From Cyanophora paradoxa CCMP329 (Eukaryota; Plantae; Glaucophyta), in the NCBI GenBank assembly GCA_004431415.1, contig QPMI01000428.1, forward strand, positions 434,001 to 498,000: a stretch of 64,000 bases of DNA. The letters are read 5' to 3'. Position numbers and translations under genes: made by a program. The notes beneath the pieces were generated by a model. It saw only the letters and a list, made by a program, of their open reading frames with translations, had not been told where the DNA came from and ran no database searches. Every line of letters begins with the position of its first letter. Position 1 is the stretch's first letter. This document shows positions 25,801 to 64,000 of the stretch, piece by piece.

Positions 25801-28800
25801 CGTCACAGGCGTCGACGCGTGCGGCAACGTCGTCAACTTTGACCAGTGCGCTCCCGCTCAAGAGCTCGAGTGCGAGATCTAGTGCTCACGCGAGGGTTTG
25901 ACCCGTTCCGTTCAGGGCGCCGAACAACGCGTACGAGTTTGCGTTCTCCGGAGGTTTCGCCAAGCTGCCGTTCTTCGCGGACTTCACGACCGCGGCGGGC
26001 GCAACCCCGCTCTGCTCGTACGTGCGCTACCAAGGCGTCATCGGGTGCTTCCGCGAACTTAAGGTGCGACATCCACATCCGTTGCAATGTTTGTGGTGTT
26101 GACTGCGTCGACGTCCGTCCGACGTGCAGATTTCCCGCGTCGTCGGCACAACTGGCGTCGTCACCATCTGTGCGCTCCTAATGTTTTGTTTTCCATTTGC
26201 GTCTGGAGAACGGGGGCCTGGCCTTACTGAGCGAATCTGCGCAGCCTACAAGCTCTTCGCAACCGGGGATGGAAAACTGAACCTCTTTGTTAACACGAGG
26301 CAGACCACCTTCATCGAGGGATCGCGCATCGCGTCCACCGACGAGCCGGTTGCAAAGGTATCCGTGTCCCGCATCCCGAAGGATCCGATCGAAATCGTCT
26401 CCGCAAGGTTCTCCGATGCGGTACGCCTGAACTCGGAATAGCTGTGCGCGACTGATCACGACTGACTCTGTTCCTGCGTTCACGTATACGTAGGGCAACA
26501 CTGTACTGTTCGAGCTGAGCGACAACTCGGACATGCTTCAGGTGCGGCTGTCCGGATATATTCACGGATAATGATCTGTAGTGCTAAGCGTTCGAATTCT
26601 TTGGCAGAGTTATATGGGCACTTCAGGCGCCTTGTTGGACTCGGCGAGAAATGTGCGCGCGAGCGCCATCTTTGAGAATGCCGAGACCCTGTTCGGTCCT
26701 GGTGCTCTTGCTCCTTCGTGATACTTTCCTATTGCTCCTTCGTGACACTTTGCTCGCAGCCTCCTACTGCTCGTTTGTCAGCCCAAGGGTAATGGAAGTC
26801 ACGATCGCCGGAGTGACCGAGCAGAACATCGGAAGCCTCGCCGGGCCTTCGACCAACGTGAGGATCGCGAGCGCTGGCGCCCCGATCTACAACGCGTGCG
26901 TTCTGTCGCCAATGCAAATCCGCGCCCCCGCCACTAAAATTCCTGCAGCATCGGCAACTCTGCGCGGATCCCGTCTTCGGCGCCCGCCAAACCCATTCTC
27001 GCTCCGAACAACCCGCCGACCCCCGTTGTCCAGCTCACGGGTGACACGTCGGTTGGAAAATGCGACCCCGCCGAGTACATTGCCAAGGTCGAAAGCGGCG
27101 GCTGCGGTCGGCCACTCGGCCTGACGTGGACTGTTACCAAAGATGGGACCGCTATGACCCCAGGTTCGTGCACATAATATACTCGAGTGGAATCTCGTGT
27201 GGGATTCTGCATTTCTAGCCGCCTCTTACCTGGCCTATTGAGCAGGCGCTAGTTCATACCAAGAATCGGGAACGGCTCTCCGCATTCTTGCGAGCAATGC
27301 GGGCACGTACACGGTGGCCGTGACTGGTAAGAATTTCCTGCAGGAGGCCAGCACGCAGCAGACGATTACGGTGAGCCCGCATTTGCTTGCAATGTCATTC
27401 CAAAGAGTGCATGCGTGCGCCTCTAATTCTTGCCTTCAGCTTGTAAAAACCGAAACGGCGATTCCGAGGGTCGTGATCGCGGAAGGCGCGAGGCTGGAGT
27501 CTGCGAAGACCACAGACACGACCCTCACCGCCCGTGCCACGTTCAGCTCTTGCCCCACTGGCTCGAGCTCGAGTGCGCGCCCTCCCCGGTCCCGTCCCAC
27601 GGCCTTTTTTACTGGGGGATTCTCACGCCTTCTCCCAGGCGAACCCGCGATGGAGTTCAAGTGGTTCGTTGGAGGGGAACAGACCGCGGTGACCTCTTCG
27701 TCCTTCACGATCGGGCCGACTGGAGTATCGCTGGCGGTACGCTTGTCGAATAACAGCTTGCAATCGATTCCATCCGCTCATATTAGCCCGCCCCGCAGCC
27801 TCGCGACGCGCCGTACGAAATCAAGGTGGAGGGCACCGTCAAGGGGACGGATCTCAAGAACTCGTTCACCACGATGCTCACCGTGAAGGCAGCAAGGCTT
27901 GTGGCGGACGTCAAGGCGTTTGCCGAGTCGGGCGGCGTCCTGCAGCAGACGAGCACCATCGGCATCGACACCAACATCGAGCTCAACGCGACGGCGTCCT
28001 TCGACCCCGATAACTTTGATCCCAAGAATCCAAACCCCGCTTTCGACACGATGCTCTCGTGCAAGTGGACGATCGCGGCGAGCTCCCCGGCGAACGGTCT
28101 TGCGAAGGACGCCAACGGCTTCATTGCCGCCGGCTCGGGCGTATCCATTCCCAGCGACAAGAATGGATGCGTCCTGAAGATCGCAGCTGAAACCCTGAAG
28201 CCGGACAAGACGTCTCCACGAATGCCGTAAGCGAATTGGTACAAATAAAGAGTCTGGTTTCTCATTTCTCACTCCATTGAGCAGGTTTGTCTTCACGGTT
28301 CAAGTCACTCGCAGCGACACCCTCAACCGCGCCGCGGCTACGGCCTCCATCCCGGTCGTCGTTTCAGAGTTCGCCCCGCCTGCAGTCTCCATTGTGGTAC
28401 GAGGCGCCCGCTTTCGTAACCCCGCTCACGCCATTGACGCGTTACCGCCATCGCGAACCAACAGATTGACGGCTCGCGCACCGTGAACGCGTTCCGCGAG
28501 CTGAAGCTGACCGGCGCCATCGAGGCCCCCAGGGACATCGACGCGGACGACTTCAAGAGAAATGGAGAGACAAAGTACAAGCTGCAGTACCTGTGGACCG
28601 TGCAGAGCGCGAGCACGCTGGACCTTCAGGACAAGAACATCACGGAGAGCAGCACGGGACCGTCCCTCGTCCTGAAAAGGAATGTCCTCCGCCCGGGGCA
28701 GACCTACACGTTCGCCCTCTCGGTCACGCTCGAGAAGGACGGAAAGATCCGCACCGCATCAGCGGAAACCACGCTGGAAGTTAACCGGGTGCGCTGCGTT

Positions 28801-31800
28801 GCCGACGTCAACGTGCATGCACATGCGCCGAGACGTCTCTGATCACAGTCGCGCAGCCACCCGCGTCGGGCAGCTGCAAGCTGCTGCAGCTTGTCGGTGG
28901 CAGCCTGCAGAGCGTCACGTCCGCCAAGGCCCTCACGGAGGAGTACCGCCTCTCGTGCAGCGACTGGGTCACGAACAGCCCGCCCCTTCAGTACGCCTTC
29001 GAGGTCGAGGATGATACCGGAAAGAAGAGCACCCTCCGCGGCTACTCGTCTGACAGTACCCTTCCGAAGGTCAAGGCCTTCCCTGTGAGGGGTGCGCCCG
29101 GCCCGTCCCTTTAAATTTACAACCGCATACGTATTCTATGGCGCGCGTCCGCTCACGCGAGCGCCTCTCTCGCGGGCCGCAGGTTCCCTGAAATTCCGCG
29201 GGTACATCCGCGACGCGACGGGCGCCTTCACCGTCTTCAACGACCTTGCGCCCGTGCCGGTCGAGGACCCGACAATCGGCAAGTCGGCGTCGCAGGTGGC
29301 ACAGCTGATCAAGGACAACACGGACGCCGCGACGAGCACGTGCATCCGCGCCCAAGATTACGTCTGCGCGTTTGGCAGCATTCTTACGGCCACCAACTCG
29401 GCCCAGCAGCAGGCAGCCATCAACGCGCGGAGGCGCAAGGCTCTTGAGACCTTCACGAGCGTTCCTGCGCGCCGCCGCCTCAGCGCCGTGGACCCTGCGC
29501 TTCTCCAGATCCAGATCGACGCGCTCCGCAGCGCGACGCAGGCCGTCGAGGGCGCGGCGTACAGCCGCACGACCGTCAGCGCCGCCGCGTCTCAGTACGC
29601 GACGGTCCTTGGCGCCGGCTTCGCTGCTGAGTACAGCGCATCCATCATCCACGACGCCCTCGCCCTCGCAGGCAACCTGACTTCCCGCTACGTGCGAGAC
29701 TGCAGCTCGTACACGCCGGACACGGATGCCGTCATCGAGAACCTCGTCCGGGGCTCGCTCAACGTGTTCAGCAACGATGCCGGCGTCAACCGCACCCTCG
29801 CCTCGTCGCTCTCGCTCCGGCACCTCCTCGCGCAGCTTGGCCGCCGCAGCCTCGAGTGCGGCACCTGCGCGTCAACGCTCAGTAACTCGCCCTCGCCCGT
29901 CGCGGCGTACGCCGCGCCTACTGCCTCCCGCAAGGACGCCGAGCTCCTCCCGCTGCAGCTCTGCGTCTCCCGCACCGTTGCCTACCCGCCGCAGACGGTC
30001 GCCTTTGCCGGCTTCGACTCCCGCGTCGTCCTCCCGTCCAGCTTCGCGCTCAGCGTCCTCGGCAACGCGACGACCGACCGGACCCTGGACCTCGTTGCCC
30101 TGCGCCTCCCCGCCGCCCTGTACAGCGCCAGCGAGCGCTTCGCATCCGACGTCGTCCAGATCTCCGTGTTCAAGGCCGGCTGCGGCGCCAGCTGCGAGAG
30201 CCTTCCGATCGCCGGCCTCCCGGAGCCCGTCACCTTTGCCGGGCTCGTACCGGCCTCGGCCGCCTTCGACTTCATGTCCGAGCGAAGTGAGTGGCCGAGG
30301 GGGCGCCGGCGCCCTCGCTTTTCGCGCTCCGTTGTTAACGATATGTGTCTCGCAGTTTCGCTTTCGCGCTTCAACGTGTCGGCTTCCACGTGGACGGAGA
30401 CCACCCCTGGCGCCATTGCCGTTCGCGGCGTGGACATGCGCTACGCGTCGGCCGAGGCGAACGTGGTCCCGGCGAGTGCGACCGCCGTTCTCCACGACAT
30501 CGCCCACGTCGTCCGCTCGCGGCCCGAGTCGCGCAACGTCACCTCGCGCGCGACGCTCGGAATCGCGTTCGTTTTCTACCCCGGCCAGGGCAACACGACG
30601 GCCGCGTCCATCTTCGCGAACAGCTCGGCGTCGGACCCGGCCGGCCTCGTCGCGGCCATCGCGGCCCGCATCCGGGCCCGCGCGGCCGCCCTTGGCTCGG
30701 CGGCCTCCCAGGTCGCCGGCTTCGACCAGGACATGCAGCTCGCCGTGGAGACGGGGGCCATCTCCCCTTCGGCCGCCGGGGCGGTCGAGGGCCTCCAGAT
30801 CACCTTCTCGTGCGCAACGGTTCTTCCTTCGAAGCTTCCGGCTTGGTGAGGCTGACGACCCGATTTCGCGTCTCAGGTTCTTCGGGGTGGCGAATCCGGC
30901 CGCCGGGACGAGCCGGCCGTCGTCCGTTCCGCTCCGCGACTTTGTCTACGCTGACGCGCTCATCAACGGCCTCGACCTCTCTGCCATTGACCCGCTTCTC
31001 GTGGGCGGCGTCCCGCGCGCCCTCAACGGCCAGCGCATCACCTCGGTGCGCGACGCGTGATGCGTGATGCGTGATGCCGGTGAAGTGGCGACCCGTACTC
31101 ACCACCCACTTTCGCAGCCGGGCGTGCCCGGCATCGGCGGCTTCCGCAACACCGCCGGCAGCGCGCTCTCCGTTGTTCTCTCGTTCCCGGCGCAGGCGGT
31201 CACGCTCGCGACGTTCCGGACTCTGTATCCCGTGTCGGCCTCCGTGTTCGGCAACCCGCGGCTTGTCCGCTCGGTGCTCGGCGCGCTCCGGGGCGCAGTG
31301 AACGGCACCTCGTTCTCTGCCGATCTCGCCAAAGTCATCGACATTCAGGTGCTTTATCTTCCTGCAAATTTAATGTAAGACGTCGACGGCCCGTAACGCT
31401 CGATATATCGATCTCAGATGGCCTACGTCGGCGCCGAGGCGGGCTCCGTCGTTCTGTCCTTCAACGCCTTCGGCGCGCTGCTGGCCAGCCCCGCCGCCAA
31501 CGGCGGCTTCGAAGTTGCGGCGACGGCGACCGGGCCGGAAGCGATCGCCCGGGCGCTCGTCTACGCTTCTTTGACGGGCGGCCTCACCCTCCCGCTCGCC
31601 GACGGCTCTCGCCTCACGGGAGGCACCGTCCGCTCCATCGGCGGCAGCTTCGCCGGCGTCGCGCCGTACGTTGCGGCGGTCGCGGCGGAGCTGAGGCGCG
31701 CGGCGCCGGCCGTCTCTGCCAACGCCTCGCGCCTGAACTTCACGATCCGCGTGGAGAACGGCGCCGGCTCGTTCGCGGCGTGGCTCACTGACAACTACGA

Positions 31801-32488
31801 CGCGCTGGACGCCGCCACTCGGGACGACTACTGGGCGCTGTCCCTCTTCAACTTCCTGCGCCAGATCGACCCGTCCGTCAACGTCAACGGCGTCCTCTTC
31901 CCCGGCCGCGCGGCCTTCGCCGACGGCGTCAGCAACGGCACGCGCCGGCACGCCCTGCAGCTCACGGTCAGCCCGTCCGTCGACATCACGGGCATCTATC
32001 TTGGCTCCTCGCCCATCCTCGGCTCTGGCTCGGGCTTTTCGCGCAACAGTCCGTGTCCTTGCTTCGTTCCCCGTCCGCGCTGCTGCGATCTCCTGACAAG
32101 CCCTCGCGCAGGCACGTTCTGCGGGACGGCGTACACCGTCTCGCTCCCGAGCGGCACTGCGACCGCCAGGCCGCAGTGCACGCAAACGGACGTCAAGGCA
32201 CAGGTGCCAGGCACCGGCGGCCCGATCAGCCAAGGGCAGACCTCGTCGCCCGCGTCGTCGGGCCTCTCGGGCGGGCAGATCGCCGGCATCGCCGTGGGCA
32301 TCATTGTTGGTGTCGTCGCGGTCATCGCCATCGCAGCGTTCGTGTTCATGCGCAAGAACCGCGGAGATGCCATGGATCTCCCGCGGCCTGTGCAGTCCGC
32401 CGCCTACGTCGTGGACGCCAACGGCGTCGCGGAACCGGTCCGCGCTGCGGAGCCGGCCGCGCCTCACACCCAATTCATTCTGGTGTAA
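16814..32488 (+). CDS. Giant type-I membrane protein: signal peptide, Cys-rich head, (TETP)n mucin stalk, SP repeats, FN3/Ig-filamin-like repeats, PKD/REJ module, TM and short tail
   Basis: Signal-like [19 protein letters not shown]; Cys-rich exons at 16814-17610; TETP array; PSPSPS; repeated beta-sandwich units ([31 protein letters not shown]); REJ-like [11 protein letters not shown] and YLWTVQS...[22 protein letters not shown]...[10 protein letters not shown]|PPASGSC...[17 protein letters not shown]; [29 protein letters not shown] followed by RKNR; stop at 32486-32488. Joining the 5' exons to the repeat is inferred. Confidence 0.8.
17925..22615 (+). repeat. Coding tandem array with a 36-bp unit ACGGAGACTCCC-ACGGAGACGCCG-ACGGAAACCCCG (3 x TETP), roughly 130 units
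   Basis: Directly visible and nearly invariant; scattered single-C deletions in CCC/CCCC runs shift the frame. Confidence 0.98.
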
Positions 32489-40189: not shown

Positions 40190-41045
40190 CCTCGGAGGCG
40201 TGGCGGCCCTGGCGGGCGGCGGCGCGGCTCGCCGGGCGGGGCGGAGGCGCGCGGGGCGGAGGCGCGACTCGCCGGGCGGGGCGGAGGCGCGGCGGGCGGC
40301 GGCGCGGCTTAACGGGCGGGGCGGAGGCGCGCGGGGCGGCGGATCGGCTCTCCAGGCGTGGTAAAGGCGCGACCGGCGGCGGCGCGGCTCACCGGGCGGG
40401 CGGAGGCGCGCGGGGCGGCGGATCGGCTCTCCAGGCGTGGTGAAGGCGCGACCGGCGGCGGCGCGGCTCACCGGGCGGGGCGGAGGCGCGCGGGGCGGCG
40501 GATCGGCACTCCAGGCGTGGCGAAGGCGCGGCGGGCGGCGGCGCGGCTCACCGGGCGGGGCGAAGGCGCGGCGAGCCGCGGCGCGGCTCCCCGGGCGGGG
40601 CGGAGGCGCGGCGGGCGGCGGCGCGGCTCGCCGGGCGGGGCGGCGGGGCGGGGCGGCGGGGCGGCGGAGTGGGGCGGCGGGGCGGCGGAGCGGGGCGGCG
40701 GCGCCGCGGCGCGGCTCGACGGGCGGGGCGGACGCGCGGCGGGTGGCGGCGCGGCTCGCCGGGCGGGGCGGCGGGGCGGCGGAGCAGGGCGGCGGGGCTG
40801 CGGGGCGGGGCGGCGGGGCGGAGGCGCGGCGGGCGGCGGCGCGGCTCGCCTGGCGGGGCGGCGGGGCTGGGCGGCGGGGCGGCGGCACGGCTCGCCAGAC
40901 GGGGCGGCGGGGCGGCGGGGCGGAGGCGCGCCGGGCGGCAGCGCGGCTCGCTGGGCGCCGGCGGGGCCGCCCGGGGCCAAGCCGCGGCGGCGGAGCGGGG
41001 CGGCGGGGCGGCGGTGCGGCTCGATGGGCGGGGCGGACGCACGGC
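40190..41045. repeat. G-skewed GC-rich minisatellite between the PMT copies (about 40-bp subunits; three 80-bp units at 40321-40560)
   Basis: Unit cggaggcgcgcggggcggcggatcggctctccaggcgtggtgaaggcgcgaccggcggcggcgcggctcaccgggcggg repeated three times, then decaying. Confidence 0.85.
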
Positions 41046-49711: not shown

Positions 49712-52700
49712 ATGACAACGTTAACGCCTACGGGAGACGGGACCGCTTCCGGCCGATCCTCGCGCGAGCTCCAGCGGGAGCGCACCCTGAGCACAGCGAG
49801 CGAGGGCGGCTCGAGCGAGCGCCTCAGCTCCGCCCTGCGGATCTGCTTGTGCTGCCTATGCGAGAAGTCGAATCTATTCACGTTCGGTGCGCGGTCCGCG
49901 TGGGCACCAACCGGCGATCGCTTTCGCTCCGACCAACAATGCCGCGCAGGCGAGGCCTGGATCCCGAGCGGATTCGACTCCCTCAAGCTCAGCGATGCAT
50001 TCCACGTACATTCCCACAGCGATAAGGACTTCAAGAAGTGGCGAGAAGTCTCCAAGGCCATCAAGTTCCGCGTCGGTGGGCCGCGGCCTCGCCCGAGCGC
50101 GCATCGTGCGCCATTCTTCCCGACTGACGGCGTATGCGGCGGCCGGGCTCCGCCGCGCACAGACAAGGGCCTGCCCGGCCGGTGTTTGACCCGGGATGGC
50201 GGTGCGGCCCGCTTCGCCGGCCCCCGCCTCGGAGCCTCACCCCTCTGCTCGCGGCAGGTCCGGAATGGATTCGGGACGTGCGAACGGAGCCCCCCGACGT
50301 GCGCCGCTCCGCCCGGCCCGGCGCGGTTGCCCCCTCGGCGCTCGCTGACCGCGGCCGCCGCCGCGCCGCGCCCGCAGCGCTTCCTTCGCGGGGACGCCGC
50401 GCGCGAGATCGGGCTCGGAGCGGCGGTCTCCATTCCGATCTTCTCCGACACGTTCAACCGCTCTGGGACCATCGTCGCGATCCTGTGCCTCTTCGCGGAG
50501 CGCGCCGCGGATCCCGACACGGAGCTGCAGGACGATCTTCTCTCTCTCGTGACCGCGATGCTCGCCACGGAATGGTTCAGGTCGACCTTCGTCGACGTAC
50601 CCGGCATGTTCCCCCTCTCGACCCCCATGCAGGCGCGCCCCGTCTCTCCCTTTCTTCTCGTTTCTCTTGTACCCGGCCTCGCTCACGCCCCCCTTCGTCG
50701 CTCAGCAACTGAGCCTGCAGGGGGCGTCCCACGGCCCGCCCGACAGCCGCCCGGCCCCGTCCAACTTCCCCCTGGAAGGCCCAGGCCCCGCCCACCCGCC
50801 CACGACCACCCCAGACAAACCGCGCGTCCTCATCGTCAGCCGCCGTCTCTTCCGGAAAGGGAAGTGGGTCGACTTCGTGGTTCGCGTACCCCCATTCGTC
50901 CCCCCCCCCCGCATCCTTCCTCGTCCTTACCCGCCACAGGGTGAGTACCACCTGGATTTGATCTTCCGCTTCGGCGCTGTACCCGTCGTGGTTCCCCGCG
51001 TGGCGGGTACGCTCGACAACATCGACCGGTACGAGCCGATGCACGGGCTCCTCATGTGCGCAGTAGCCCTCTCTCTCCCCTTTTCCTTCCTTTTCCTTCC
51101 TTTTCGTTTCTTGCTCCTACTCCTACGCCCCCTCCCCCTACCCCCCCTCACTTCTTCCCCCCCCCCCCGCCAGGATCGAGGGGGAGGACATCGATCCGAA
51201 GTTCTTCGCGTCGACGTCGTATGACACCCTTTCGCCGCACGCCAAGGCCAAGATGGGCGAGGTGCGCCCTTCCCCCCCCCCCCCCCCCCCCCCCCCCCCC
51301 GTTTCCTAAGCCTAAACCTGTACTGCGCCCCTCTGACCCTTGTCCTCTCCTCTCCTCTCCTTTCCTTTCCTTTTCAGATCCACAAGGCGGACATGGAGAC
51401 GGACAGCATCAAGGACGAGATCGAGATGGAGCTCTCCCGCCGCTGCCTCATGCGCGGCGTGCGCCCCGCCCCCGCCTTTGCCCCCGCCCCCGCCCTCCCG
51501 CTCCGCTCCGCTCCACCCATCCCGCTAGGACCCCTTCCGCCCCAGCTGCGGCGCCTCGGAGCCCCAGCCCGGCTCCGAGCGGGCGGCGTCGGGCCCCCGC
51601 CCCGCCCCCGCCCTCCCGCCCATCCGCTAGGTCCCGTTCCGCCCCCGCTCTAGGCATTGTTTCCCCAGCAGCGGGCCCCGCCGCCCCGCTCCTGCTCCCC
51701 CGCCCAGCTCCGACCCCAAGCCTCCCAAGCTCTAGACCCCGCTTGCGCCCCGGCGCTGCCTCGTGCGGCGCCCCTCCGCCCGCCGCCCGCCGCCCGCCGC
51801 CCGCCGCCCGCCGCCGCCCCGCCCCGCCCGCCCGCCCCTTGCTCGCCTTAGAACACGGCCGCACACGCCGCGGCGCCGCCGGCCCCAGCAGCCCCCTCCT
51901 GCCCGCCTCCCCCCCCCCCCCCCCCCCCCCTTCCCTCGGCTCACGGGGAGCCCGGCAGGCGCCGATCTTCGGGATCTGCCGGGGGTGCCAGCTCCTCAAC
52001 CACATCTGCGGCGGCTCCCTCTACCAGGTCCGAGCCTCCGCCCGCCCCTAGGGCTTAGGAGGACGTAAAGATTTATCATGGGGGGCTTGTCTTGGGGGGC
52101 TTTGCGCCCAGGAGGACGTCCTCCCCCCGGGCTCTAGTTCTCTCGTTCTAGTTATATTCCTCTAGTTATATTAGAGCCTCCACTCCTAGGGCTCAGGAGG
52201 GCGTAAAGATTTATCTATCCCGGCTTCCCGCCCGCTTCGAGAGCTGGGGGCGCCACCGCTTCTAGAACGGAAGCCCGCCTAGCGCCTCCGCCACGCCCCG
52301 CTCCTAGCTGGGCTTAGCGCGTCGCGTACCCGTCGCGAGCGCCGCAGCTTGGCCCGCTTGGCCCCCTCCCCTGACGCCGCCTTCCCCCCCCCCCCCCCCC
52401 TTTTTTCCTTCCGCAGGACGTGATGCTCCAGAAGGGCTCCACTCTCTCCCACATCGATTGCGCGTACCCCGCCCCCCCCCACCCCCTTCGCCCGCCTTCT
52501 CGTTCGTACCCCTCTGATCCTTCCTCACCCCGCTCCCCACGCCCCCGCAGACGCGAACTACGACGGGTACCGGCACCCGATCCGCATCGAGCGGAACACC
52601 CCCCTCTTCGACTGGTTCGGTGCGCCCTCTCCGTCCCCTTCCTCCCTCCCCCTCCCACTCCTACTCCCTCTCCCCCCCCCCAACCCCAACCCCAACCCCA

Positions 52701-53692
52701 ACCCACCGGCTCCTCCTCTCCTCCTCCTCCTCGGTCCCCAGGCCCTCGCCCTCGGGGGAATGATGGCGCTGCCTTGGCTTGACGGCACGCGGCCCGGCCC
52801 CCGCCCCCGCCCCCGCAGGTCAGGAGCACCTGATGGTCAACTCGTACCACCACCAGGTACTCCTCCCCGCCCCGCCCCGCCCCGTGCCCTTTCCCTCCGG
52901 CGCCCCGGCGCACAACCCTCGGCTATAGCGCCAGCCAGCACCCCGCCCCTAGCGCGGAGCCTCGTTCTGAGCGCGCACCCCGGACCTGACCTCGTACCCC
53001 CCAGGGCGTCAAGCGCCTCGCGCCGAGCTTCAAGCCCATGGCCTTCGCCCCCGATGGTGCCCCATTCCCCCTCTCCCCCCCCCCCCCCCTCTTCCTTCCC
53101 ACTCTCCCCCCCTTCCTCCCGTCGCCCCTCACGTCCGTTCCCCCCCCCCCTCCATTCCCCCCCGCAGGGCTCATCGAGGGCTTCTACGACCCCAACCACC
53201 CCTTCCGCATCGGCCTCCAGTTCCACCCGGGTACGTACCCCTCCCGTCCTCCTCCCCTATCCCCCCCCTCATCACCCCCCCCCCGCAGAGCGTATGATGA
53301 GCGAGCACCCGGGCTGCGCGCGGCCCTTCCAGGCCTTCGTCAACGCCACCAAGAGCTACATGGTCAAGGTGCGCCTAGCTAGGCTCATAATATATAACAC
53401 GATGAATAGATAATCTTGATCTAGACAAGCTATAGCTCCGCTCCCGAGCACCGTGTCCAGCATCGATTGCATTTGATAAAGAGCTGGAAGCATGCTAGCC
53501 CAGATCCTGCCGTCCTTTCGCCCCGCTCCCAATCCTCGAAGATATAGCGCAGCTGAGCGCCCTGCCGCCCTCGTTCTTCGCTCGCAGGTGGCGTCCGTGG
53601 GCGTGCACACGACGCACTTCCGCCCCGCGGCGAGGCTCGGGCCGGTCGGGGACCGCCTCATAGGCTCCGAGTCCTTGTCGCCCAAGCAGTGA
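49712..53692 (+). CDS. GAF domain fused to class I glutamine amidotransferase (peptidase C26; plant GAT1_2.1-like)
   Basis: GAF: GEAWIP...[19 protein letters not shown]...PEWIRDV...[22 protein letters not shown]...[11 protein letters not shown]: [20 protein letters not shown]|[48 protein letters not shown]|GVKRLA, GLQFHP|ERM (Cys-His-Glu triad). An in-frame linker exon (50706-50879) joins the two. Confidence 0.88.
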
Positions 53693-54662
53693 ATGTGAGT
53701 CACTGAACTCGGTCAGTTAGTGGGCCAGTGGCTCGCGCCGCGTTGTTTCAGCCGTTTTCGGCTTCTTTTTGGCAGCCCCGTTGTACCCTATCCGTATCAG
53801 TATTATTCGTAGTTTCTACAATGCAGACAGACAGCTTTTGGAGATCCCCGTTTTACAGGCGCAGGATGTCGCCAGACCAGTTTTGTTGCTACTACGTATA
53901 CTCCTAAAGACCGATCCCGGAGTCTGCACCTCCCAAGTTGTAAACAACGGAAGTTTTGGCCTCGGAGCGCGGCCTTCCCTGTTAGATTTAATTAGGCCCT
54001 GCCGCGTGCCACAGTGGCCCTGTAGTTCCTCAGAGTCTGGGTGGTTTTGACCTGTAACGTTAGCTATAGCTATAGGTCCTAATTCTTCTGAATGCCCGGT
54101 CGTCGATTCTCTGGGGTCTCCTCATGTCTTTTAGCTCTCGCTGAATGTACACTTGTACTCGCTAGAAGCAGGCGCGCGTGTTATTCGTTCACCACGAAAT
54201 TTGGAGAATTGAGGCTTATCATTCGATCGAGAGGCCCGGCCCTGACTTGCAAACCCCCCCCTCCCTGCCTGGCCGGACCTATCCGAGCAACTTTTTTTTG
54301 TAAACCCCCCCCCCCCCCCCCCCCCCGAGCTCTGGGCTAGAGAAGGGGGAGAAGCAACTCGAATTTGAAGACTCGAGCTCGCGCGATCGATCGAGCTAGT
54401 GTCGAGAACTAAGGGGGATCCGGACGTACGTACGTATACGTACTGGAATCGGAATTCGATCGAAGGGGATCGGGCCAAGGCCGGATTACGTACGCGCAAT
54501 GATCGAAATCGAAAGCTAGGGGAATGTTTTAAAGAAGGAGACGGATCGAAGGTGACATATTTTTTTGCAATCGCGGGAGCCTTTCAAGTTTTCTCCTCTA
54601 GATCTCGCGATCGGGACTCCACAAGCAGTTCTCAGTCACAGGGCCTGCGGTCGAGATAAATC

Positions 54663-55980
54663 ATGCCGGGGGGCGACACAGGTGACGCCAGCGACACGAG
54701 CCGCGACCTAGGTAAGAAATACACGCGAAATTTCGTGAGCTCGAGGATTTCGCGCACTCATTCTTCGCCAGACTTCGTCGACGCTACCTCGGGGGCCCGC
54801 GAAAGTGCGCATCAGGATGTCGGCGCACTCCCCTCCACGCTTCGAATTCTGGGCTCTCGCGGCGGTGGCCAAGGTGTGCAATTGCAAGAAGGCGCTCTCG
54901 CCCAAGAACTAATTCGCGCCCTCGCCCTCGCCCTCGCCCATGGCCAGCGCTGTTCGCGATGGTGCTGTCCATCGCCATCGTGTACTTGGCCACGGGCTAT
55001 CAGGCGGCGATCCAGGCCAAGTCGGTCAGCCGACGGACGTCGACTGATGTCGACGTCGTTTCTTCGATCTTGCTAGCTGCAGCTGATCTTCGAGGCTTCA
55101 CGCACAGATAGAGCAGGCCGCTGATTTCAAGGAGCTGGCCCGGGCGGTGCACATGCTCATGCACGATAACGAGTAACGTTAACGATTGAGGCGAGGGGCT
55201 TGCAGATTACGACCGTCGCGGAGCGTGCAGCTGCCTCCGAAAGCAAATTAGTCGAGGAGCGCGCAGCTGCCTCCGCCACCGCGGAGCGCGCAGCTGCCTC
55301 CGAGGCCAAAAATCGCGCGCTAAACGTGAGTACGCTAATATTTCCTTCTATACATCTATTTCCGCGCGATAAATATACATCTATTTCCTTTCGCCGCATA
55401 TGCATACCCGATTTGCAAGCTCGAATAGGAATCGATATGATTTTCCCCTACATTAAATTTGCCTTCGCGCGCGCGCAGGAAAGCCTCCACACTGCCAAGC
55501 AGGAAATAGAGGCGCAGAAGAAGCGTGCGGAGAACGCAGAGGCAGATCTTGCGGTGCGGTAAAATATCGAATTCGCATCCCTTCTAATTTCTTGAAGTCT
55601 TTGTTCTAATTATATATATAATCGTGAGCTTTGTCCCATGATCAGGCTGCCAGTCGGGAGATTCAAGTCGGTCCTGGCCCCGGGGCGAAGATCATAGACG
55701 CCGTGCGACGTGCCGTGCCGGGCCAAACCATCCGGCTCGCCCCAGGCCGGTGCGTCATGATTAGATACATATGCGCTTGCAGTTCGTGCAGATATCGATG
55801 CGCAGCACGCGCAGGTATTATTTGAAAGAAACCTTGATTTTGGACAAGGATGTCCGCATCGTTGGGACGCGGGAAGCCGTGCTGGAGTGGGATAAGGACG
55901 CATCTATTCAGACCTATGGCGCCATTCTCTGCACAGGCCCTGCATCGCCACGCCTGGAAGGACTCACCGCTCGCATGGGG
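54663..55980 (+). CDS. Coiled-coil plus right-handed beta-helix (pectin-lyase/CASH-like) protein, truncated in this window by the AT-rich insertion
   Basis: Exons with ERAAAS x3 and ESLHTAKQEIEAQKKRAENAEADLA, then IIDAVRRAVPGQTIRLAPGR|YYLKETLILDKDVRIVG...ILCTGPASPRLEGLT (typical beta-helix cap). Composition changes immediately after 55980. Confidence 0.68.
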
Positions 55981-56304
55981 GTGAGCCCCACCAATTGTGC
56001 GACCTTCCCGCGACCATTTTCAATAAGCACATTTTCAGCATCACGAATCTCAGTCACAAAATCACAAATTCGCACTGAGCCACACTGTATTTTTCAAACA
56101 TCTAACCCCTCCTTACTGAAACCAATCACAAAAACCTACATATAATCTTTTCTCTAATTCCTTACCATTCCCAGTAAGCCCTTAAACCCTCCCTCGATTT
56201 CTCAGTAAGGACAGTAAGACCCCTATTTTTACGAAATGTTCCCGATCGTTTCCGGACTGTTTTCAGTTAGCCAAATTGAAAAATCAAGGTGAGCCCCACC
56301 AATT
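55980..56304. repeat. 17-bp direct repeat GGTGAGCCCCACCAATT at the junction (55980-55996) and 308 bp inside (56288-56304)
   Basis: Exact match read from the sequence. Confidence 0.95.
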
Positions 56305-56351
56305 AAACAAGTGATCCCCACTTAAAGACTTCCCGATAATATACTGTAACA

Positions 56352-56675
56352 ATGGCAAGCGATCAAGTAACTCTACCTGAGAGTAAGCAATGCAATGTAT
56401 GCAACAAGGTAAAACCGGCATCGAGTTATACATTGCAAAAGGGTAGCTCAGGAAGTATACTTTTGAATTGGAGATGCAAAGTCTGCGAACGTGACTATCG
56501 CAATTACCTTTATCATTTCGTGTTAAAAACGCGTCCGAAGATCGAAGTACAATCGAAGATATGCTCGCACTGCAAGATTGAGAAGCCTGCAAGCGAGTAT
56601 AATAAAAAACAAAGCACAAAGGATGGTCTCTACTATCAATGCCGAGAATGTTATAGTAAAACTCGTAAGAGTTAA
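56352..56675 (+). CDS. Small viral protein with two CxxC...CxxC zinc-ribbon modules
   Basis: KQCNVCNKVKPASSY...WRCKVC and KICSHCKIEKPASEYNKKQSTKDGLYYQCREC; this module type is common at the N-terminus of phage/NCLDV HNH-type proteins. No nuclease domain here. Confidence 0.75.
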   Translation: MASDQVTLPESKQCNVCNKVKPASSYTLQKGSSGSILLNWRCKVCERDYRNYLYHFVLKTRPKIEVQSKICSHCKIEKPASEYNKKQSTKDGLYYQCRECYSKTRKS

Positions 56676-56892
56676 AACCGAATTTCATTTTATATTTTTT
56701 AAAGCGAGTTTGTGCATGAGCAAGCATGCCGAAAATGCCCACCTGCACAAACTTGCGCACCCCATCGACAAAGTACGATGATCGACGAAGTACGACGATA
56801 GACCACGTTAAAATAAACTCGCGCCCCGCCCACTATGCAAGATACATGCCTTTCTTATGCATGATCTATGTAAAAACAATTATTTCAATGCC

Positions 56893-57156
56893 TCATTCCT
56901 CAGCAACTGTATTATACTCGATGCCTTTCTTTACGGTTCCCCTTTGGAATGCCTGTAATACAATGGCTTCCTTTGAGGTTGGTATTTGAACTCCTGATGA
57001 GATGCAAGATTGAATTTCTTTTTGAACAATATCATCGATTGCGATTCTTGCCCTATTGTGAACCACATTATCAATCCAATCCTGAACGGATAAAGCGCAA
57101 TACTCCATTCCCAACTTCTCAATATCAGATAGAACTACTTGGTATATATTTGACAT
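56893..57156 (-). CDS. 87-aa phage-like protein, possible fibre-associated or chaperone protein
   Basis: MEYCALSVQDWIDNVVHNRARIAIDDIV...IPTSKEAIVLQAFQRGTVK. From memory it resembles small aquatic-phage proteins encoded after C1q-domain fibres (unverified). It lies 21 bp downstream of the C1q gene. Confidence 0.65.
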   Translation of the reverse strand: MSNIYQVVLSDIEKLGMEYCALSVQDWIDNVVHNRARIAIDDIVQKEIQSCISSGVQIPTSKEAIVLQAFQRGTVKKGIEYNTVAEE

Positions 57157-57177
57157 CTCTACTTAATAGAGAGAAAA

Positions 57178-58197
57178 TTATGTGATACTTAGAAGTTCAC
57201 CTGTGAAAAGTGTTCTACTTGAATAACTACCTGTGGAACCTGTGACAAGTGTTACATACTCACCAGCAGGAACATTGATAATTGCACTGAGAGTAAGAGG
57301 TTTTGTTGTGATAGTGGAATTAGCTTCTACTGAAATGTTAACTCCATTGGGTAAAAGATTATTTTTCAGAAAACTAAGACTTATTGCAGCACTTGTTGTT
57401 GAATTGGTATATGCTGTAAATCTATAATCACCTGCAACAGGAGCTGTAAACCTTCCATTAGTAACATCGAATGACCCTGTATTATTTATCAAAACGGTTG
57501 TCCAATTGATCAGAGCGGCTGCACTTGTAGCAACATGAGTATATCCAAGTTGAACAGAAAATCGTGGCTGAGAAACATATTTTAAATAGCTTGAATTCAG
57601 AGTCAAACGATTGGCTTCCAGTGTTGCAAAAAGATCACTGTTACGTTTTAACAGCAGATTAACATCTGCTCCTGTATCTATTTCAGGAGTGACCACCTTG
57701 GTTGATGCTGTTATTATTGATTCTGTGGAATTGGGAATACTAATTCCAGCATTTGCTGTTACCAATCCTGTAAATGTGCTTGTTCCTGTTATGCTTACTT
57801 GATTGGCTGTAAGGGTTCCATCAATCCTTGCCCCATCTCCAATATAAGCGCCTCCACTTCTTACTACAAGAGCTGAGTTATTGATGGTGTTGTCAAAGGT
57901 AACAATCTTTGGTGTGGTGAACCCTCCCACATCATCATAAATTGCTGAATCTGATACAATCTGACCTGATTGAACTTGGTTCTTGTTTGAGACTATTAGA
58001 CCTGTGGTTCTCACCTTGCCTGCATTTCGATCACATCGAATTTCTTTGCATCTGATCACAGAATGTTGAGAGAATGAATCGGCTCCTGTGGTCTCTGTGC
58101 AAATGAAACCTGGGGTAGCATCTGTTACTGTATGGTTGAGTTGATGCAATTTCGGCGCTGCATAACAGAAAACAGGAACAGCTATTTGTGTAGACAT
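57178..58197 (-). CDS. Fibre/spike protein with C-terminal C1q/TNF-like head (paralogue 1)
   Basis: C1q signature QPRFSV...INWTTVLINNTGSFDVTNGRFTAPVAGDYRF...LSAIINVPAGEYV...FTGELL; shaft motif ALVVRSGGAYIG. Confidence 0.85.
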   Translation of the reverse strand: MSTQIAVPVFCYAAPKLHQLNHTVTDATPGFICTETTGADSFSQHSVIRCKEIRCDRNAGKVRTTGLIVSNKNQVQSGQIVSDSAIYDDVGGFTTPKIVTFDNTINNSALVVRSGGAYIGDGARIDGTLTANQVSITGTSTFTGLVTANAGISIPNSTESIITASTKVVTPEIDTGADVNLLLKRNSDLFATLEANRLTLNSSYLKYVSQPRFSVQLGYTHVATSAAALINWTTVLINNTGSFDVTNGRFTAPVAGDYRFTAYTNSTTSAAISLSFLKNNLLPNGVNISVEANSTITTKPLTLSAIINVPAGEYVTLVTGSTGSYSSRTLFTGELLSIT

Positions 58198-58219
58198 TCT
58201 TTATATTATACAAACAATA

Positions 58220-59283
58220 TTATGTAGCACTTACCAGGTAAACCAACAAGATGTGATTGCTTGGAAAGTCAATACTACCTAACATACAGTAAATTTGAAG
58301 ACTGTCTCCCATGGTGAGGGTAATAAGAGCTTCGTAGCACATCTGATTCCTGCTTGATTGACTTGCATATGAAAGAATCTGATTTGTATTGTTTCCGTTT
58401 ATTCTTAGTCCAATCTGGGTCAAGGAGGCAGTTGCAGTATTGTCTTCCGTAATTGTAAAATAGACCCTATAAACTCCTGAAACAGGGCTGTAAATGTTGC
58501 TGGATACAGTTTGTCAAAATGACCCTCATTATTCACAAGATATGTTCCAACTGGAAAAGGAAGTGTTGGGGTGCCGGAACTAACACTTGTTCCAAAAATC
58601 TGAGCGTTTGCTTGTTGTCCTGAAATACACATTCTTGGGCAATAGCTGCGTTTAAGACCACTGTTTGTTGGAAATGTGATTGCTTTCAGATCTGTTATTG
58701 TCTTTTCGAGAGTGAAAATGATATCTCCGTTTCGTTTATAATTCACATTTGCATCTGTCCCATTATCCATCTCAGGTGCATTAACTCTTGTAGTAGCTAT
58801 TCGAGTAACATAGTTAACATCTCCTGAGAGACCACCATTAAAGGTCATCAATCCTGTGAATACACTTGTCCCACTCACATTTAATTGGTTTGCTGTAACA
58901 GTTCCTGCTACATTTGCTCCATCTCCAATGTAGGCTCCTCCACTCTTGACTACAACAGCAGAATTATTACTTGTGTTACCAAAAGTAACTATCTGAGCTG
59001 TGGTAAATCCACCCACATTATCATATATTGCCGAGTCTGAAACCACTTGACCTGCTTGAACTTGATTTTTATTCGAGATTATAATTCCTGTGGTTCTTAT
59101 CTTGCCTCCATTGCGATCACATCGAATCTCTTTGACTCTGAGTATATTATTCTCTGTGAAAGAGGTATTACTTGAAGTTTCAGTGCAAATAAACCCGGGT
59201 GTAGAATCAACTACTTCATGAGAGGTGCTGTGTAGTGATTTTGCTGCAAGTTCATAGTTTGGGATTTCTAATAGAGAGGTCAT
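58220..59283 (-). CDS. Fibre/spike protein with C1q-like head (paralogue 2); one frameshift at ~58486
   Basis: N-terminal ~150 aa closely match paralogue 1 (PGFICTET, KEIRCDRN.GK.RTTG, SNKNQVQ.GQ.VSDSAIYD.VGGFTT). Adding one base to the GGG at 58485-58487 restores FTAPVSGVYRVYF and joins ORF 58220-58423. Confidence 0.82.
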
Positions 59284-59302
59284 CTTTATATTAATCAAAT
59301 AG

Positions 59303-60868
59303 TTAAATTGCGACAGCAGTGTAATGAATTGTAACTGGAAATCCTGGTCTGTCAAAAGAACTTAATGGAACTATGTCAAGCTCACAAGTGAAATAGCTAC
59401 TGTAAACTTGTTTAAGCCTTACATACATGCGGTAGTAGTAGGCTGTCTCATTGTGTTGTATACCGGTTGTTACAATAGGAGGGTTAGCAAAGCTGCTGTT
59501 GAAATTAATAGTGAGGTTAAACCTATGGTCAGGGTTTGCCCAAAGATAAGGAGTAGTGTAAACATACGTTCCTGCTTGAATTTTCCCATTAAAATATGCA
59601 TTGAGTTGACTGGAAAGATCTGCTTCTGTAATGCATCTACTGATAGTCTGATTATTTGAAGGGTTCATAGCATAGAAATTCCTTGCATAGGCATTCCCTC
59701 TCACAAGTAAGGTTTTATCAAAGTAATTCTGCGAATTGTGGAAGAACCATGTTTCTTCAAACATAGGTCCTGCTGGTTCTACAATCTGACCTGATCCTAC
59801 ATACATTGTGTTGTTGGCTCTTATAGTGGTAGCTGTGAATGGATCCAGAGTAGGTCGATCTGTAATATCTCCCCAAAGGTGGGTGTGTGCGAAATCTGTA
59901 ATTTGGGATTTTGTATGAGTATGAGCAAAGTCTGTAATTTCACCTTTGGTGTGAGTGTGAGCAAAATCTGTAATCTCACTCTTGACATGAGTGTGTGCAA
60001 AATCTGTTATCTCACTCTTGACATGAGTGTGTGCAAAATCTGTAATCTGTGATTTTGTGTGAGTGTGCGCGAAATCTGTGATTTCCGATTTAAAATGAGT
60101 GTGAGCGAAATTAGTAATATCTGCTCGGGTATGGGTGTGTGCAAAATCTGTTATTTGGGATCTGGTGTGAGTGTGTGCAAAATCTGTGATTTCTGCCTTT
60201 GTGTGGGTGTGTGATCTATTATTAAGGTCGAGGAAACTCCCCGAAAATGCAACAGGGTGTAGATTAGCTGCGGTGGGTTTGTTTATGAGATCATTATAGT
60301 CTCCTGAGAACGAAACCGTTTTCAGTTCACCCCTTCCTACATAATCAGAAGGGAGGTCAATTTTTATGGGCATTATAGCTGGATCATCTGGGATCACATA
60401 CTCTCCACCTGTGTGAACCACAGGGTATCTTCGAATATACATATTGGATGCACCCATGAGAGGTGCTACAATGGGCACATCCGAATTAACGAGATTGCAA
60501 GTGATGGAGAAAATGGTTTTGGGGGCATACAGATTGCAATCAAAGGTCACAGTGGCGGGATCAATAGTAGGATCTACATTTGAACAGATCTGAAACATCC
60601 ACCCACCCACACAGTTGCAATTTAAATTGCGAAAGGCTGTGCCTGCCATTGCATCCACATAGCCTATTCCACTTGCAATGTCATAGATGTGCCCAAACTC
60701 ATAACCAAAAATGTCATTCCACAGGTTGGAAGCCATAGCTCCCATCACATACCCTTTCAAATTTACAAGTAGGTCATTGGATTCACTGGGTATATTGCTA
60801 TGGGTTATGTAAAATTGATTATTCAACACAGCATTCCTAATTGTCGTCTCTACTATGGGCTCCGTCAT
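59303..60868 (-). CDS. Tail-fibre-like protein with 10 x 12-aa HTH-x-x-x-ITDFA repeats and C-terminal H-type-lectin/gp53-like domain
   Basis: VSFSGDYNDLINKP and VAFSGSFLDL motifs; (AHTHTKSQITDF)n; HTHLWGDITDRP; C-terminal INFNSSFANPPIVTTGI...IHYTAVAI. Confidence 0.85.
   Translation of the reverse strand: MTEPIVETTIRNAVLNNQFYITHSNIPSESNDLLVNLKGYVMGAMASNLWNDIFGYEFGHIYDIASGIGYVDAMAGTAFRNLNCNCVGGWMFQICSNVDPTIDPATVTFDCNLYAPKTIFSITCNLVNSDVPIVAPLMGASNMYIRRYPVVHTGGEYVIPDDPAIMPIKIDLPSDYVGRGELKTVSFSGDYNDLINKPTAANLHPVAFSGSFLDLNNRSHTHTKAEITDFAHTHTRSQITDFAHTHTRADITNFAHTHFKSEITDFAHTHTKSQITDFAHTHVKSEITDFAHTHVKSEITDFAHTHTKGEITDFAHTHTKSQITDFAHTHLWGDITDRPTLDPFTATTIRANNTMYVGSGQIVEPAGPMFEETWFFHNSQNYFDKTLLVRGNAYARNFYAMNPSNNQTISRCITEADLSSQLNAYFNGKIQAGTYVYTTPYLWANPDHRFNLTINFNSSFANPPIVTTGIQHNETAYYYRMYVRLKQVYSSYFTCELDIVPLSSFDRPGFPVTIHYTAVAI
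59859..60213 (-). repeat. 36-bp coding repeats x10 encoding HxH fibre repeats
   Basis: Degenerate at synonymous sites, e.g. gtgtgtgcaaaatctgt recurs with a 36-bp period. Confidence 0.9.
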
Positions 60869-60906
60869 TATATATCTATTATTGCATACTACAAAAATTA
60901 AGGTTG

Positions 60907-63900
60907 TTACATAACGTTTGGAACATGTTCATATATTCTTCCTTCTCGCTGTGCCATTTCCGCCATAAAGTCTGCATTATCTTTTATTATTGATTCAGCC
61001 ATTCGTTGTGCTCGTGATTTTTTGGGTGCTGCCCTACTTGCTGGTGGTTGATCAGTTCTCACAACACTTAGACCATGCCCCTCGGCTGACCTCACCTCTA
61101 AGCCCACATCTCCTTCGGCTGTTTGGGTCACATTCAGCTCAGGTGTGGAGTATTTATTACCTGCTCCTGCAATGGTTCTGTCTATGCAAGCACAACATAA
61201 AGCTCGGAATTTGTATGCAAGCACAAGCCCAAGAGCACCGAGAATCGGTAAGAGAATCATAAGCACTAACGTTCCTGGATCAGTTCCCGGTGCTCCGACT
61301 GGATTAGTAGGATTTGTGGGATTATTAGGTGTTGTAGGATCAGTGGTAGGTGGGGTCTGTGGGTCTGACTCATCAGGAGGCAAGTTAGGATCTGAATCTG
61401 GGGCGGTTCCGTCGACCCTGCTAATGAGGTCGGCGCTGTGTATGCATTTGCAAACACGATGGGAGCCGTCGCTGGATTTCCTGTGGAGGATCCTGAGATT
61501 GCACCATAGGTATCTGACAGATATTTATACAATTCCTGTGTCACAGGCGGATTACTCACAGATCGACACACCCAAATATTGCATGTGGTATCATAGACTG
61601 TGTCCCTGATAAAGGGCGGTAGAGCCGTCCCACTGAATGACTCAAAGAGTCCATTTCGCGATAGCAACCTATGTCCTGTATCACAATTCCCACCCTCAAA
61701 GTACTTCGAAGCCGAAATCGCACCTTGCACATAAATATTGCATGTCGAATGCAATCCAATGTTATTTAGGTTAGGAGTGTATCTGTCATCAAGCCGGACA
61801 GTGCACACCCATGGGGAAGCGGTTTTTATATATTTCTTATCGCCTGCTGTGATCACATCAGTGTTTGGGTGGCTGTCAATTTGGGTAGCAATAGACTCAT
61901 ATTTGTAAGAGTAATAAACTAAGAGACCATCTGTGGAGGATGTAAAATAAAAGAAGTCTCTCATGAAGTCTGTGGATCCAAAGAAGTCAGCATTGGTCGA
62001 TGTTAGGGTGACTCTGGGATAGCTCATGTTGACAGTCTCAGAAGGATATGGAATATAAGAGGTGTAATAGCGATTTAACAGATAATAGTAAAATCCATCT
62101 GAGACATTCGAGTGAGTGGGCAAGGTCACTGTTAAGGTCTTACTGCGATCCTCAAACGTTTTATGTATGACAATATTGCAAGTATTAATGTATCGAGAAT
62201 CGAAAAAGTAATTATTCGTCACTCGATTATCGATCAGAGTCGCATTGGTTCCATTAAACACGAAATTCTGCCCATTAATTCTCGTAGTATGAATGTCGGT
62301 CACATCGAGAGGATACCTTATTTTTAATCGATCTTCGGAGTCAAACCGAGGTATAGTTCCTGTTGCCTTCCAACTAATAGTAAAGGGAGGAGAAAGGGAC
62401 ACTGCTGGGATAACGGAAAGATTGAATTTCGCGAAGTACAATCCAACAGGATACCCTGACAGAGCATATGTGACAGTGGCATTTCCAACAAGTGTAAAGC
62501 CGGTTGTTGTAATGTTAGTTGCAAGAAATGGGGAGTAGCCTGCGGGTGCATTTTGAAGTGAGGTAGATGACCCATCATTGACGACATACAAGTTGGTGTC
62601 TGTTATTTCAATTGTAGGAGGGGAGACAAATGGAGACTCAAATGTGAAATTAAAACTCGCTGGAACCCCTGCAAGATATCTATATGAGACCGATCCTATT
62701 TCAGATGCCTGGAATACTTTGCTTCCACTCCGCACTACATTACTTGTGTCTTTCACATTGTGGTATGATATGCTGGGAGTCGGGGAGAGCACCAACGAAA
62801 TAGCATCTGGTAAATCAGACTTTGTTATATACAGCTCTTTAAGATACTCCTTTCTAAAAGGCGCGGTCAGATCTCCAATAGTAGCCGATGAACCTGCGAC
62901 TACAATATTACAGGTGTTTGCACTCAAAGAATAAACTGTGTTCCACCTTAAAGAGTTCGCGCCAAGATCGAAATTCTGTGAGAAGGGCACGATATTGCTA
63001 CCTTGTAAATCTCGGTAAACCTTTACTCTGGGTTCGCTATCGAATTCAGGGGTGATATAATTGATGGTAAGAGTGAAACTTATAGTAGCTTCGGAAGTCA
63101 ATAAGTTGTTTCGGATGATAAGTAAATTGTATGTCTCGTTAATGACAAACGAAATCTGAAACCCTGTGGAGGTGACATTTTGAATAAATGCTTTATTCGA
63201 TTCATTATTGTTAGTGATAGGATTATAATAAGTAGTGTGATCCACCAATGAAACAGTGGGTATAGTCGTCTCGAAACCTGTGACACCCAACTGATCCCAA
63301 GTGAATGTAAATGTAGGTTTGCCTACATAAGCGACAAAGACCCCATTTGCAATCTGCTGAGGGTATCCTTCGACAGTGTAGGTCTCAGTTTGCGAAACTG
63401 AGCGGGAAAGGTTGCTATTAAAGTCAGTGTAGCTGATCAGTGCATTATCATTGGTGAGAATCTGATTGGGTCGGAGTGAGTGATTAAATGGAAGGATTAA
63501 ATTGGAGGCAAACATGGAAACTCCATGCAACTCTGACCATCTCAGATTCGAGAGACCAATTCGGTATGTGTTGTCAGTCGCGGGGTAAATGTTCCTTTTC
63601 GATAAAATATGGGCTAAGGTAATTGCAAGCGCTCCATCTGCTGCAAACAGAGCATTAATTTCGGATTGCAAAGCCGCGATTTCAGTAGTGTGGGTCGTGA
63701 GGGTTCCATCCTGACTTGAATCTTTGGTGTTCTTGCTCCTCTCGAACTCCAAAAACGCCTTTACGATGTCCTTGCCTAAAAGATCGTTTATATTGTCTCT
63801 GGTAATGTAAACATGATCTGTTCTCAGTGCTGTTTCTCTGTGGTAAAAGCCGGAATCTCCTCTGCAAATGATATAGTCGTTTTATCAAGTGCTAAGGATC

Positions 63901-64000
63901 TCACATTCGGAGCATTGGCGCCAATTATATCCACAACGTTCCCATTTTCGACAATTTCTAAGGTCGGTTTCGCGGGGTCTAATGTGAAAACACCCTCTGT
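60907..64000 (-). CDS. Large (>1000 aa, 5'-partial) fibre-like protein with Pro/Thr linker, C-terminal TM and Cys cluster; two apparent frameshifts
   Basis: ORF 61266-63752 has IYPATDNTYRIGLSNLRW and IVPFSQNFDLGANSLRW motifs and two lectin/gp53-like units (FESPFVSPPTI...NITTTGFTL...ISWKATG). One added base in GGGG at ~61400-61403 gives STEPPPDSDPNLPPDE, joining ORF 60907-61383 (TM LVLMILLPILGALGLVLAY, then ALCCAC). Another frame change between ~63825 and 63890 links to an open frame reaching the window edge. Confidence 0.72.

Follow-up and report, generated by a model that had tools for sequence, protein, structure and literature searches.

What is the GC-poor, intron-less island at the right end of an otherwise GC-rich, intron-rich stretch of the Cyanophora paradoxa CCMP329 genome? 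The window analyzed here, by which is meant the whole stretch of 64,000 nucleotides (contig QPMI01000428.1, positions 434,001-498,000, forward strand), contains this island from approximately position 55981 to its last letter, so that at least 8 kb of the underlying element is in view. It shows, from its left end, one of the many copies of an element that is probably a Polinton-like virus (PLV) integrated in the alga. A preliminary description, made from the sequence without database searches, had proposed an endogenous double-stranded DNA virus with four phage-type fibre genes, inserted into a host gene. An integrated element of this type, carrying receptor-binding genes like those of phages within an intron-rich eukaryotic genome, is supported by the sequencing depth and contigs described below.

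The island consists of a plus-strand gene for a protein of 107 residues, followed by minus-strand, intron-less genes for proteins of 87, 339, about 354 and 521 residues and finally a gene of more than 1,000 codons. The lack of introns is as previously described, but the genes are not all co-oriented, as the first open reading frame (ORF) lies on the opposite strand.

56352..56675, plus strand: 107-residue zinc-finger protein in an accessory slot (PHROGs matches, to Cys motifs only)
56893..57156, minus strand: 87-residue phage-type partner of the C1q fibres (37-51% identity to phage proteins)
57178..58197, minus strand: fibre A, 339 residues, with a conserved N-terminal region and a C1q tip (Pfam C1q; PDB C1q, E = 2e-7)
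58220..59283, minus strand: fibre B, with a C1q-like tip and a frame break near 58484 (paralogue of fibre A, 51% over 258 residues)
59303..60868, minus strand: 521-residue fibre with an N-terminus without known family, PTR repeats and an H-lectin tip (Pfam)
60907..64000, minus strand: large gene (more than 1,000 codons) continuing past the window edge, with frame breaks near 61399 and 63829

The four fibre genes together occupy at least 6.7 kb, close to the 7 kb of four fibres reported initially, but the largest of them ends in a predicted membrane anchor. Of the C1q heads, HxH repeats and H-lectin tip that had been recognized by eye, the following are recovered above the Pfam cut-offs: C1q in fibre A (35.1 bits, cut-off 23.7), the 12-residue HxH (PTR) repeats at 59883-60213 in the 521-residue fibre (30.3 bits, cut-off 27), and H_lectin in the isolated tip of the same protein (25.0 bits, cut-off 24). 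The C1q-like tip of fibre B is a weak Pfam match (E = 0.006). No phage homologue was found for the N-terminal region of the C1q fibres, and the eight matches to the N-terminal part of the 521-residue fibre were set aside, those inspected sharing a short repeat motif only. A search of viral contigs with the C1q fibre returned 0 loci, and protein searches gave generic fibre motifs only, among them three C1q proteins. Two window proteins looked up in a collection of 15 billion proteins were absent from it, and the ESM Atlas provided leads only, at 0.89 to unnamed, mostly viral clusters. The proteins show no enrichment of N-glycosylation sequons. The spacers between the minus-strand genes (57157-57177, 58198-58219, 59284-59302 and 60869-60906) are AT-rich and about 20-40 nucleotides long, and a TATA-like run immediately precedes the ATG of three fibre genes.

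The 87-residue protein matches, at 37-51% identity, proteins encoded by Synechococcus phage S-SRM01, by Limnohabitans phage DC33 and by the viral contigs L001 and L002. The gene directly upstream was scanned for domains in three of these four loci (L002, L097 and L098) and has C1q above cut-off in all three; in L001, this position is taken by a gene for a different small protein. The same order, a C1q gene and then the small gene, is thus found here and in phages, and the pair has likely moved as a unit. A role for the 87-residue protein as a chaperone or tip-binding factor would be a guess. Within its gene, 57025-57085 has 81-84% nucleotide identity over 57 nucleotides with the phage contigs L001 and L002. 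The 107-residue protein resembles the N-terminal part of HNH/endonuclease VII proteins, with no nuclease domain matched; a search of viral contigs with it gave one locus, on a contig of 178 kb, where the endonuclease VII gene is an unrelated one. This gene lies in a variable slot near the element end (56283-56759), where other copies skip or replace it.

In the product of the large gene, a phage fibre-shaft motif is present as two units, and an H-lectin-like module comes after each of them; a domain without known family follows. The 13 matches to the shaft all fall on the shaft motif itself, and the units form an internal repeat. The two modules are weak H_lectin matches (E = 0.0065 and 0.036). 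A reading of a 158-residue ORF as a gene of its own was rejected: it has a TTG start only, and contigs at about 13-18x depth carry an extra base that links it to the large gene. This 158-residue part supplies a Pro/Thr stalk, a hydrophobic helix, basic residues, two cysteines and a tail, and the helix (61216-61272, 19 residues) is a predicted transmembrane helix whose mean hydropathy of 2.64 is the highest in the island. A stalk, a hydrophobic helix and a tail make up the established layout of a single-pass membrane protein. If the break near 61399 is an assembly error, the gene is thus predicted to encode such a protein and not a plain fibre. The large ORF was found at 0 loci in viral contigs. 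AlphaFold was uninformative, with a predicted local distance difference test score of 31 for the large ORF and 48 for one lectin-like module, and fold searches with these models gave no match at E 0.001; ESM Atlas similarities of 0.77-0.80 to single-pass membrane proteins are at chance level. A T-C-N-I motif occurs four times in this protein (62188-61566, minus strand; residues ~303, 547, 694 and 746 of an 809-residue piece).

Short-read data show how often these genes occur in the genome. Twenty runs with one species label each contain at least half of the words of 54500-64000, and contigs from four of the 20, dating from 2012 and 2024, were compared with the window, using contig graphs built from 31-letter words. 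No RNA run is listed among those that match, which has no bearing on expression. Copy number, which the preliminary description had proposed to check, was taken as contig depth divided by the depth of a single-copy host contig (35.6, 77.7, 110.4 and 72.3 in the four runs), a rough measure that GC bias may inflate. The backbone lies overall at about 27-40x host depth, with contigs at 63104-63389 at 36-40x and those of the H-lectin tip, common to about 27-34 copies, at 27-34x (three runs each), and the element is estimated to be present in about 30-40 related copies. The two C1q tip alleles of the window, including that of fibre A, are found at 4.9-7.4x (about 5-7 copies), the zinc-finger gene at 4.1-5.0x (about 4-5 copies) and four alternative tip joints at 0.6-1.1x. 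These ratios are discrete and remain stable between the 2012 and 2024 runs, as would be expected of integrated copies but not of a free phage. Joints and loose ends mark the sequences that differ among copies, namely the C1q tips, the region upstream of the 87-residue gene and the zinc-finger slot. A further loose end at 59856 (three runs), read by eye as a short repeat motif preceding the HxH block, suggests that some copies are without this block.

Among the 40 best-supported of 468 variant rows, 39 are coding, and these include 27 synonymous changes, 12 non-synonymous changes and no stops, compared with a neutral share of 0.26 (P = 2e-8); the rows were selected for their support, and variants that are linked do not count as independent. 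The copies show neither an excess of C>T nor one of G>A, hence no sign of methylation decay. The three frame breaks of the window, near 58484, 61399 and 63829, each have one extra base in the contigs of all four runs, and are therefore probably assembly errors; frameshifts in endogenous copies of this kind are often assembly artefacts (PMC10120064). The island thus belongs to a multi-copy integrated family that is under purifying selection and variable in its tips, and is not a contaminant. The intact, selected copies make a recent arrival plausible. The earlier argument for such an arrival, from host sequence signatures missing in the island, is not upheld. Six-base palindromes are fewer (12.5 per kb, compared with 33 in the host part), and GGGTAC is of little informative value, since it occurs only once in the 2.6 kb of host DNA adjoining the junction.

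The position of the element end can be approached from both composition and contig structure. GC content is 0.409 in the island and 0.655 in the host part, and the ratio of observed to expected CpG is 0.62 and 1.17, respectively. An order-3 Markov model places the change point at 55981 (interval 55970-56015), with lower orders giving similar positions (56012 for order 1, 55989 for order 2). A GC-only change point (50-64 kb) falls at 55320, however, because adjacent host introns are AT-rich, and although the compositional shift claimed at 55981 is present, the edge is therefore less sharp than was stated. In all four runs, a single-copy contig spans 54337-55996, stops there and then branches; in one run, the host contig is matched to its last letter. 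With 31-letter words, a contig from a unique flank extends over the first 30 letters of a repeat, and the shared start is accordingly at 55967 (55996 = 55967+29). The bin 55670-56003 has an excess depth of about 37 nucleotides multiplied by the backbone copy number in the three runs with a figure, again indicating 55967. The shared end of the element is thus probably at 55967, 14 nucleotides left of 55981. The alternative, an out-branch at 55997 with two alleles, would require 180-215x over seven nucleotides.

55967..56003, plus strand: likely left terminus of the element, with a weak hairpin (from contig end and depth; hairpin z = -1.96, with an equally good one in 6 of 200 shuffles)
55980..55996, plus strand: first copy of a 17-nucleotide motif, an exact direct repeat that includes a GTG-N5-CAC inverted repeat
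56288..56321, plus strand: second copy of the motif (56288-56304), followed by a third GTGANCCCCAC site (56311-56321); candidates for protein binding (z = -3.96)

The 17-nucleotide motif has just two copies in the window at up to three mismatches, and any exact 17-letter repeat in the end region was obtained in 1 of 500 shuffles. All three exact GTGANCCCCAC sites fall within 340 nucleotides in the terminal region; with one mismatch allowed, the total in the window is at chance level, so only the clustering counts. These repeated motifs look like candidate sites for a dimeric protein. The end motif was found at 0 loci in viral contigs, and its 93 single matches in metagenome contigs were taken as chance, the loci examined having no similarity to the island beyond the motif, with the sole exception of one weak tblastn row (L010, E = 5e-4).

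On the other side of the junction, the flank includes exons of KdtA (58 bits) and of a protein O-mannosyltransferase (67 bits), and the host is, judging by this sequence, a GC-rich, intron-rich eukaryote, an alga or other protist. A GC content of 67.6% has been given for C. paradoxa (PMC6704402), compared with 65.5% in the host part here, which, together with the fibre architecture discussed below, is in line with a glaucophyte host.

55646..55749, plus strand: host exon of a coiled-coil protein running into a putative beta-helix cap (by eye; no family match)
55750-55814, plus strand: GT-AG intron after this exon
55815..55980, plus strand: last host exon before the island, an open frame that is cut at 55966/55967 or ends at a GT donor at 55981

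If the element ends at 55967, the host exon is cut within coding sequence, and the element supplies the donor-like GT at 55981. The host gene at the junction had been described as a beta-helix gene, but its exons have no beta-helix match in Pfam, NCBIfam, PDB or the protein collection, and the putative label reflects a sequence pattern. Several other host genes are present in the window. A very large, intron-split surface-protein gene (17537-32488, plus strand) contains 4.7 kb of 12/36-nucleotide Thr-Pro repeats at 17931-22659, Ig/filamin-like pieces (weak Pfam matches) and, by eye, a C-terminal membrane helix. The dolichyl-phosphate-mannose protein mannosyltransferase exons (PF02366; 38477-43064, minus strand) enclose a GC-rich tandem array at 40193-41020, and KdtA (Kdo transferase, PF04413; 44363-46419, minus strand) is a lipid-A pathway gene in a eukaryote. 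A gene at 51393-53400 (plus strand) appears by eye to be peptidase C26 or glutamine amidotransferase-like; a 21-residue piece of it was scanned, with no Pfam match.

Two features of the island, i.e. multi-copy low-GC integration with related, non-identical copies and phage-like fibre genes, are typical of PLVs but not exclusive to them. PLVs are reported to be 14-40 kb long with phage-like fibres of up to 3,900 residues, and a PTR-PTR-H_lectin protein was found once, in a PLV of the glaucophyte C. paradoxa (PMC12220804). Table S6 of that paper lists 156 glaucophyte elements, with an A32 ATPase in 139, rve in 85, pPolB in 49, and no tyrosine recombinase or virophage capsid. In addition, 366 C. 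paradoxa capsid hits in two clusters (272 and 94) are given in PMC10120064, and adintovirus-like proteins in C. paradoxa contigs in PMC8502044. The element likely belongs to a catalogued PLV family; we infer its virus class, its integrase and the formation of particles.

Several observations weigh against this assignment. No capsid, penton, ATPase, polymerase or integrase is present within the 8 kb of island in the window, the rest of the element lying beyond it, and no close relative was found for any island protein in viral-contig and protein searches. To our knowledge, a membrane anchor is unusual in a PLV fibre. At the junction, the host contig extends over no more than 16 letters of the island, or 30 with an end at 55967, which is less than a formal 31-letter bridge. 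With regard to terminal repeats, the one end in view is a defined shared end with repeated motifs, but its depth is about 1x that of the backbone under the 55967 model and not 2x, a weak hint against identical inverted ends. The possible inflation of copy number and the limits of the selection test, both given above, belong here as well, as does the report of giant-virus insertions in C. paradoxa (PMC12344493).

This last report also favors a larger endogenous virus, either giant or undescribed and mid-sized, possibly enveloped, of which the island would be one end and the membrane-anchored protein the envelope spike. The stalk, hydrophobic helix and tail of the large protein and the lack of PLV hallmark genes in view would be compatible with such a virus. 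However, 30-40 giant genomes would be a heavy load, no Nucleocytoviricota hallmark gene or other giant-virus gene was matched in the 8 kb, and a PTR and H_lectin fibre is catalogued in a PLV, which makes a larger virus unlikely. The undescribed larger virus of the preliminary description, proposed on account of the space devoted to fibres, is not upheld: given the sizes of PLV fibres and the catalogued combination of PTR and H_lectin, 7 kb of fibres needs no larger virus. It is less likely still that the island is a capsid-less or defective mobile element with captured phage fibre genes, perhaps for adhesin display on the host cell, as might be suggested by the lack of a core viral gene in view, the host-like membrane anchor and the three frame breaks of the window copy; purifying selection on all fibre genes fits a particle function, and the matching short-read contigs are free of the breaks. 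An endogenous virophage (Maveriviricetes), with fibres binding a giant helper virus or the host, would also form low-GC multi-copy islands with phage-like fibres, but is very improbable, as neither virophage capsids nor virophage proteases occur among the 156 glaucophyte elements (PMC12220804, Table S6). Finally, a contaminating phage misassembled onto host DNA, or a chimeric assembly, both of which the preliminary description had considered, would account for the phage proteins among the closest matches and for the junction without formal bridge, but is scarcely credible given the integer-like depth ratios, including 1x variants, that are stable in runs 12 years apart, the 20 runs with one species label, and a host contig that reaches the end motif in all four runs and ends at the branch at 55996, where in a pure chimera it would continue into other host DNA.

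If the element is a PLV, its history and life cycle might be as follows. An integrase encoded beyond the window, of the rve type by analogy with catalogued glaucophyte PLVs, would have placed the approximately 30-40 copies at separate sites, with the copy studied here integrated inside or at the edge of a host exon. Once activated, the virus would assemble a capsid of the double jelly-roll type that bears trimeric fibres. The two C1q-tipped paralogues and the 87-residue partner would have been acquired as a unit from freshwater bacteriophages, and the HxH-shaft fibre with its H-lectin tip would join the C1q fibres on the capsid. By means of these predicted fibres, whose C1q tips differ among copies, the particle would bind to sugars or proteins on a surface. 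The large gene would yield a single-pass membrane protein displaying lectin-like modules on a stalk. The tips may be exchanged by recombination between copies, or may have arrived with diverged viruses. A tentative extension, which we consider possible but doubtful, is that the genome serves as a standing library of receptor-binding tips, in which co-resident copies recombine C1q tips onto a constant backbone, and that a membrane-anchored lectin fibre, encoded by the same virus, is displayed on the host cell or virion membrane, e.g. as a decoy or superinfection block. Were this the case, an endogenous small DNA virus would serve for variable recognition at surfaces, with components derived from the tails of bacteriophages.

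Large numbers of endogenous PLVs are known from protists, but their recognition of the host or of helper viruses is mostly untested. A single cultured alga likely contains intact copies by the dozen, in which alternative tips are combined with a constant backbone, so that tip specificity could be compared within one strain. The C1q-plus-partner unit traces a specific gene pair from freshwater phages to a eukaryotic virus, and a fibre-like protein with a membrane anchor, if real, would suggest that there is a membrane stage or a role at the host surface, neither of which we found described for PLVs.

Among known systems, the giant endogenous viral elements of C. paradoxa (PMC12344493) are likewise blocks of genes of viral origin, in a host that is probably of the same kind, but none of their hallmarks is seen here, and a small virus agrees better with the copy number and the compact end. 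PLVs of cryptophytes, rhizarians and haptophytes (PMC12220804) similarly have large modular fibres, lectin-type tips and adjoining small chaperone-like genes, but their modules are of the laminin G, collagen, BppL and S74 chaperone types, and the window has no match to any of these. In phages S-SRM01 and DC33, a C1q tail-fibre gene is directly followed by the gene for the 37-51% identical small protein; the module is phage-borne there, whereas here it lies in a eukaryotic multi-copy insertion. C1q is absent from the main text and both supplements of PMC12220804 as available, and no PLV fibres with C1q, variable tips or membrane anchors were found in literature consisting mostly of papers accessible without subscription. 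The PLVs of C. paradoxa itself (PMC10120064, PMC12220804), to which the island is likened by description and not by capsid, share the low-GC multi-copy insertion in a GC-rich alga, the combination of PTR with a C-terminal H_lectin, and the frameshifts that result from assembling near-identical copies. The C1q fibres, the 87-residue partner, the membrane-anchored fibre-like protein and the tip variation are not among the features described for those PLVs, as far as available, and the within-genome tip repertoire, the phage C1q-plus-partner unit and the membrane-anchored protein may be new.

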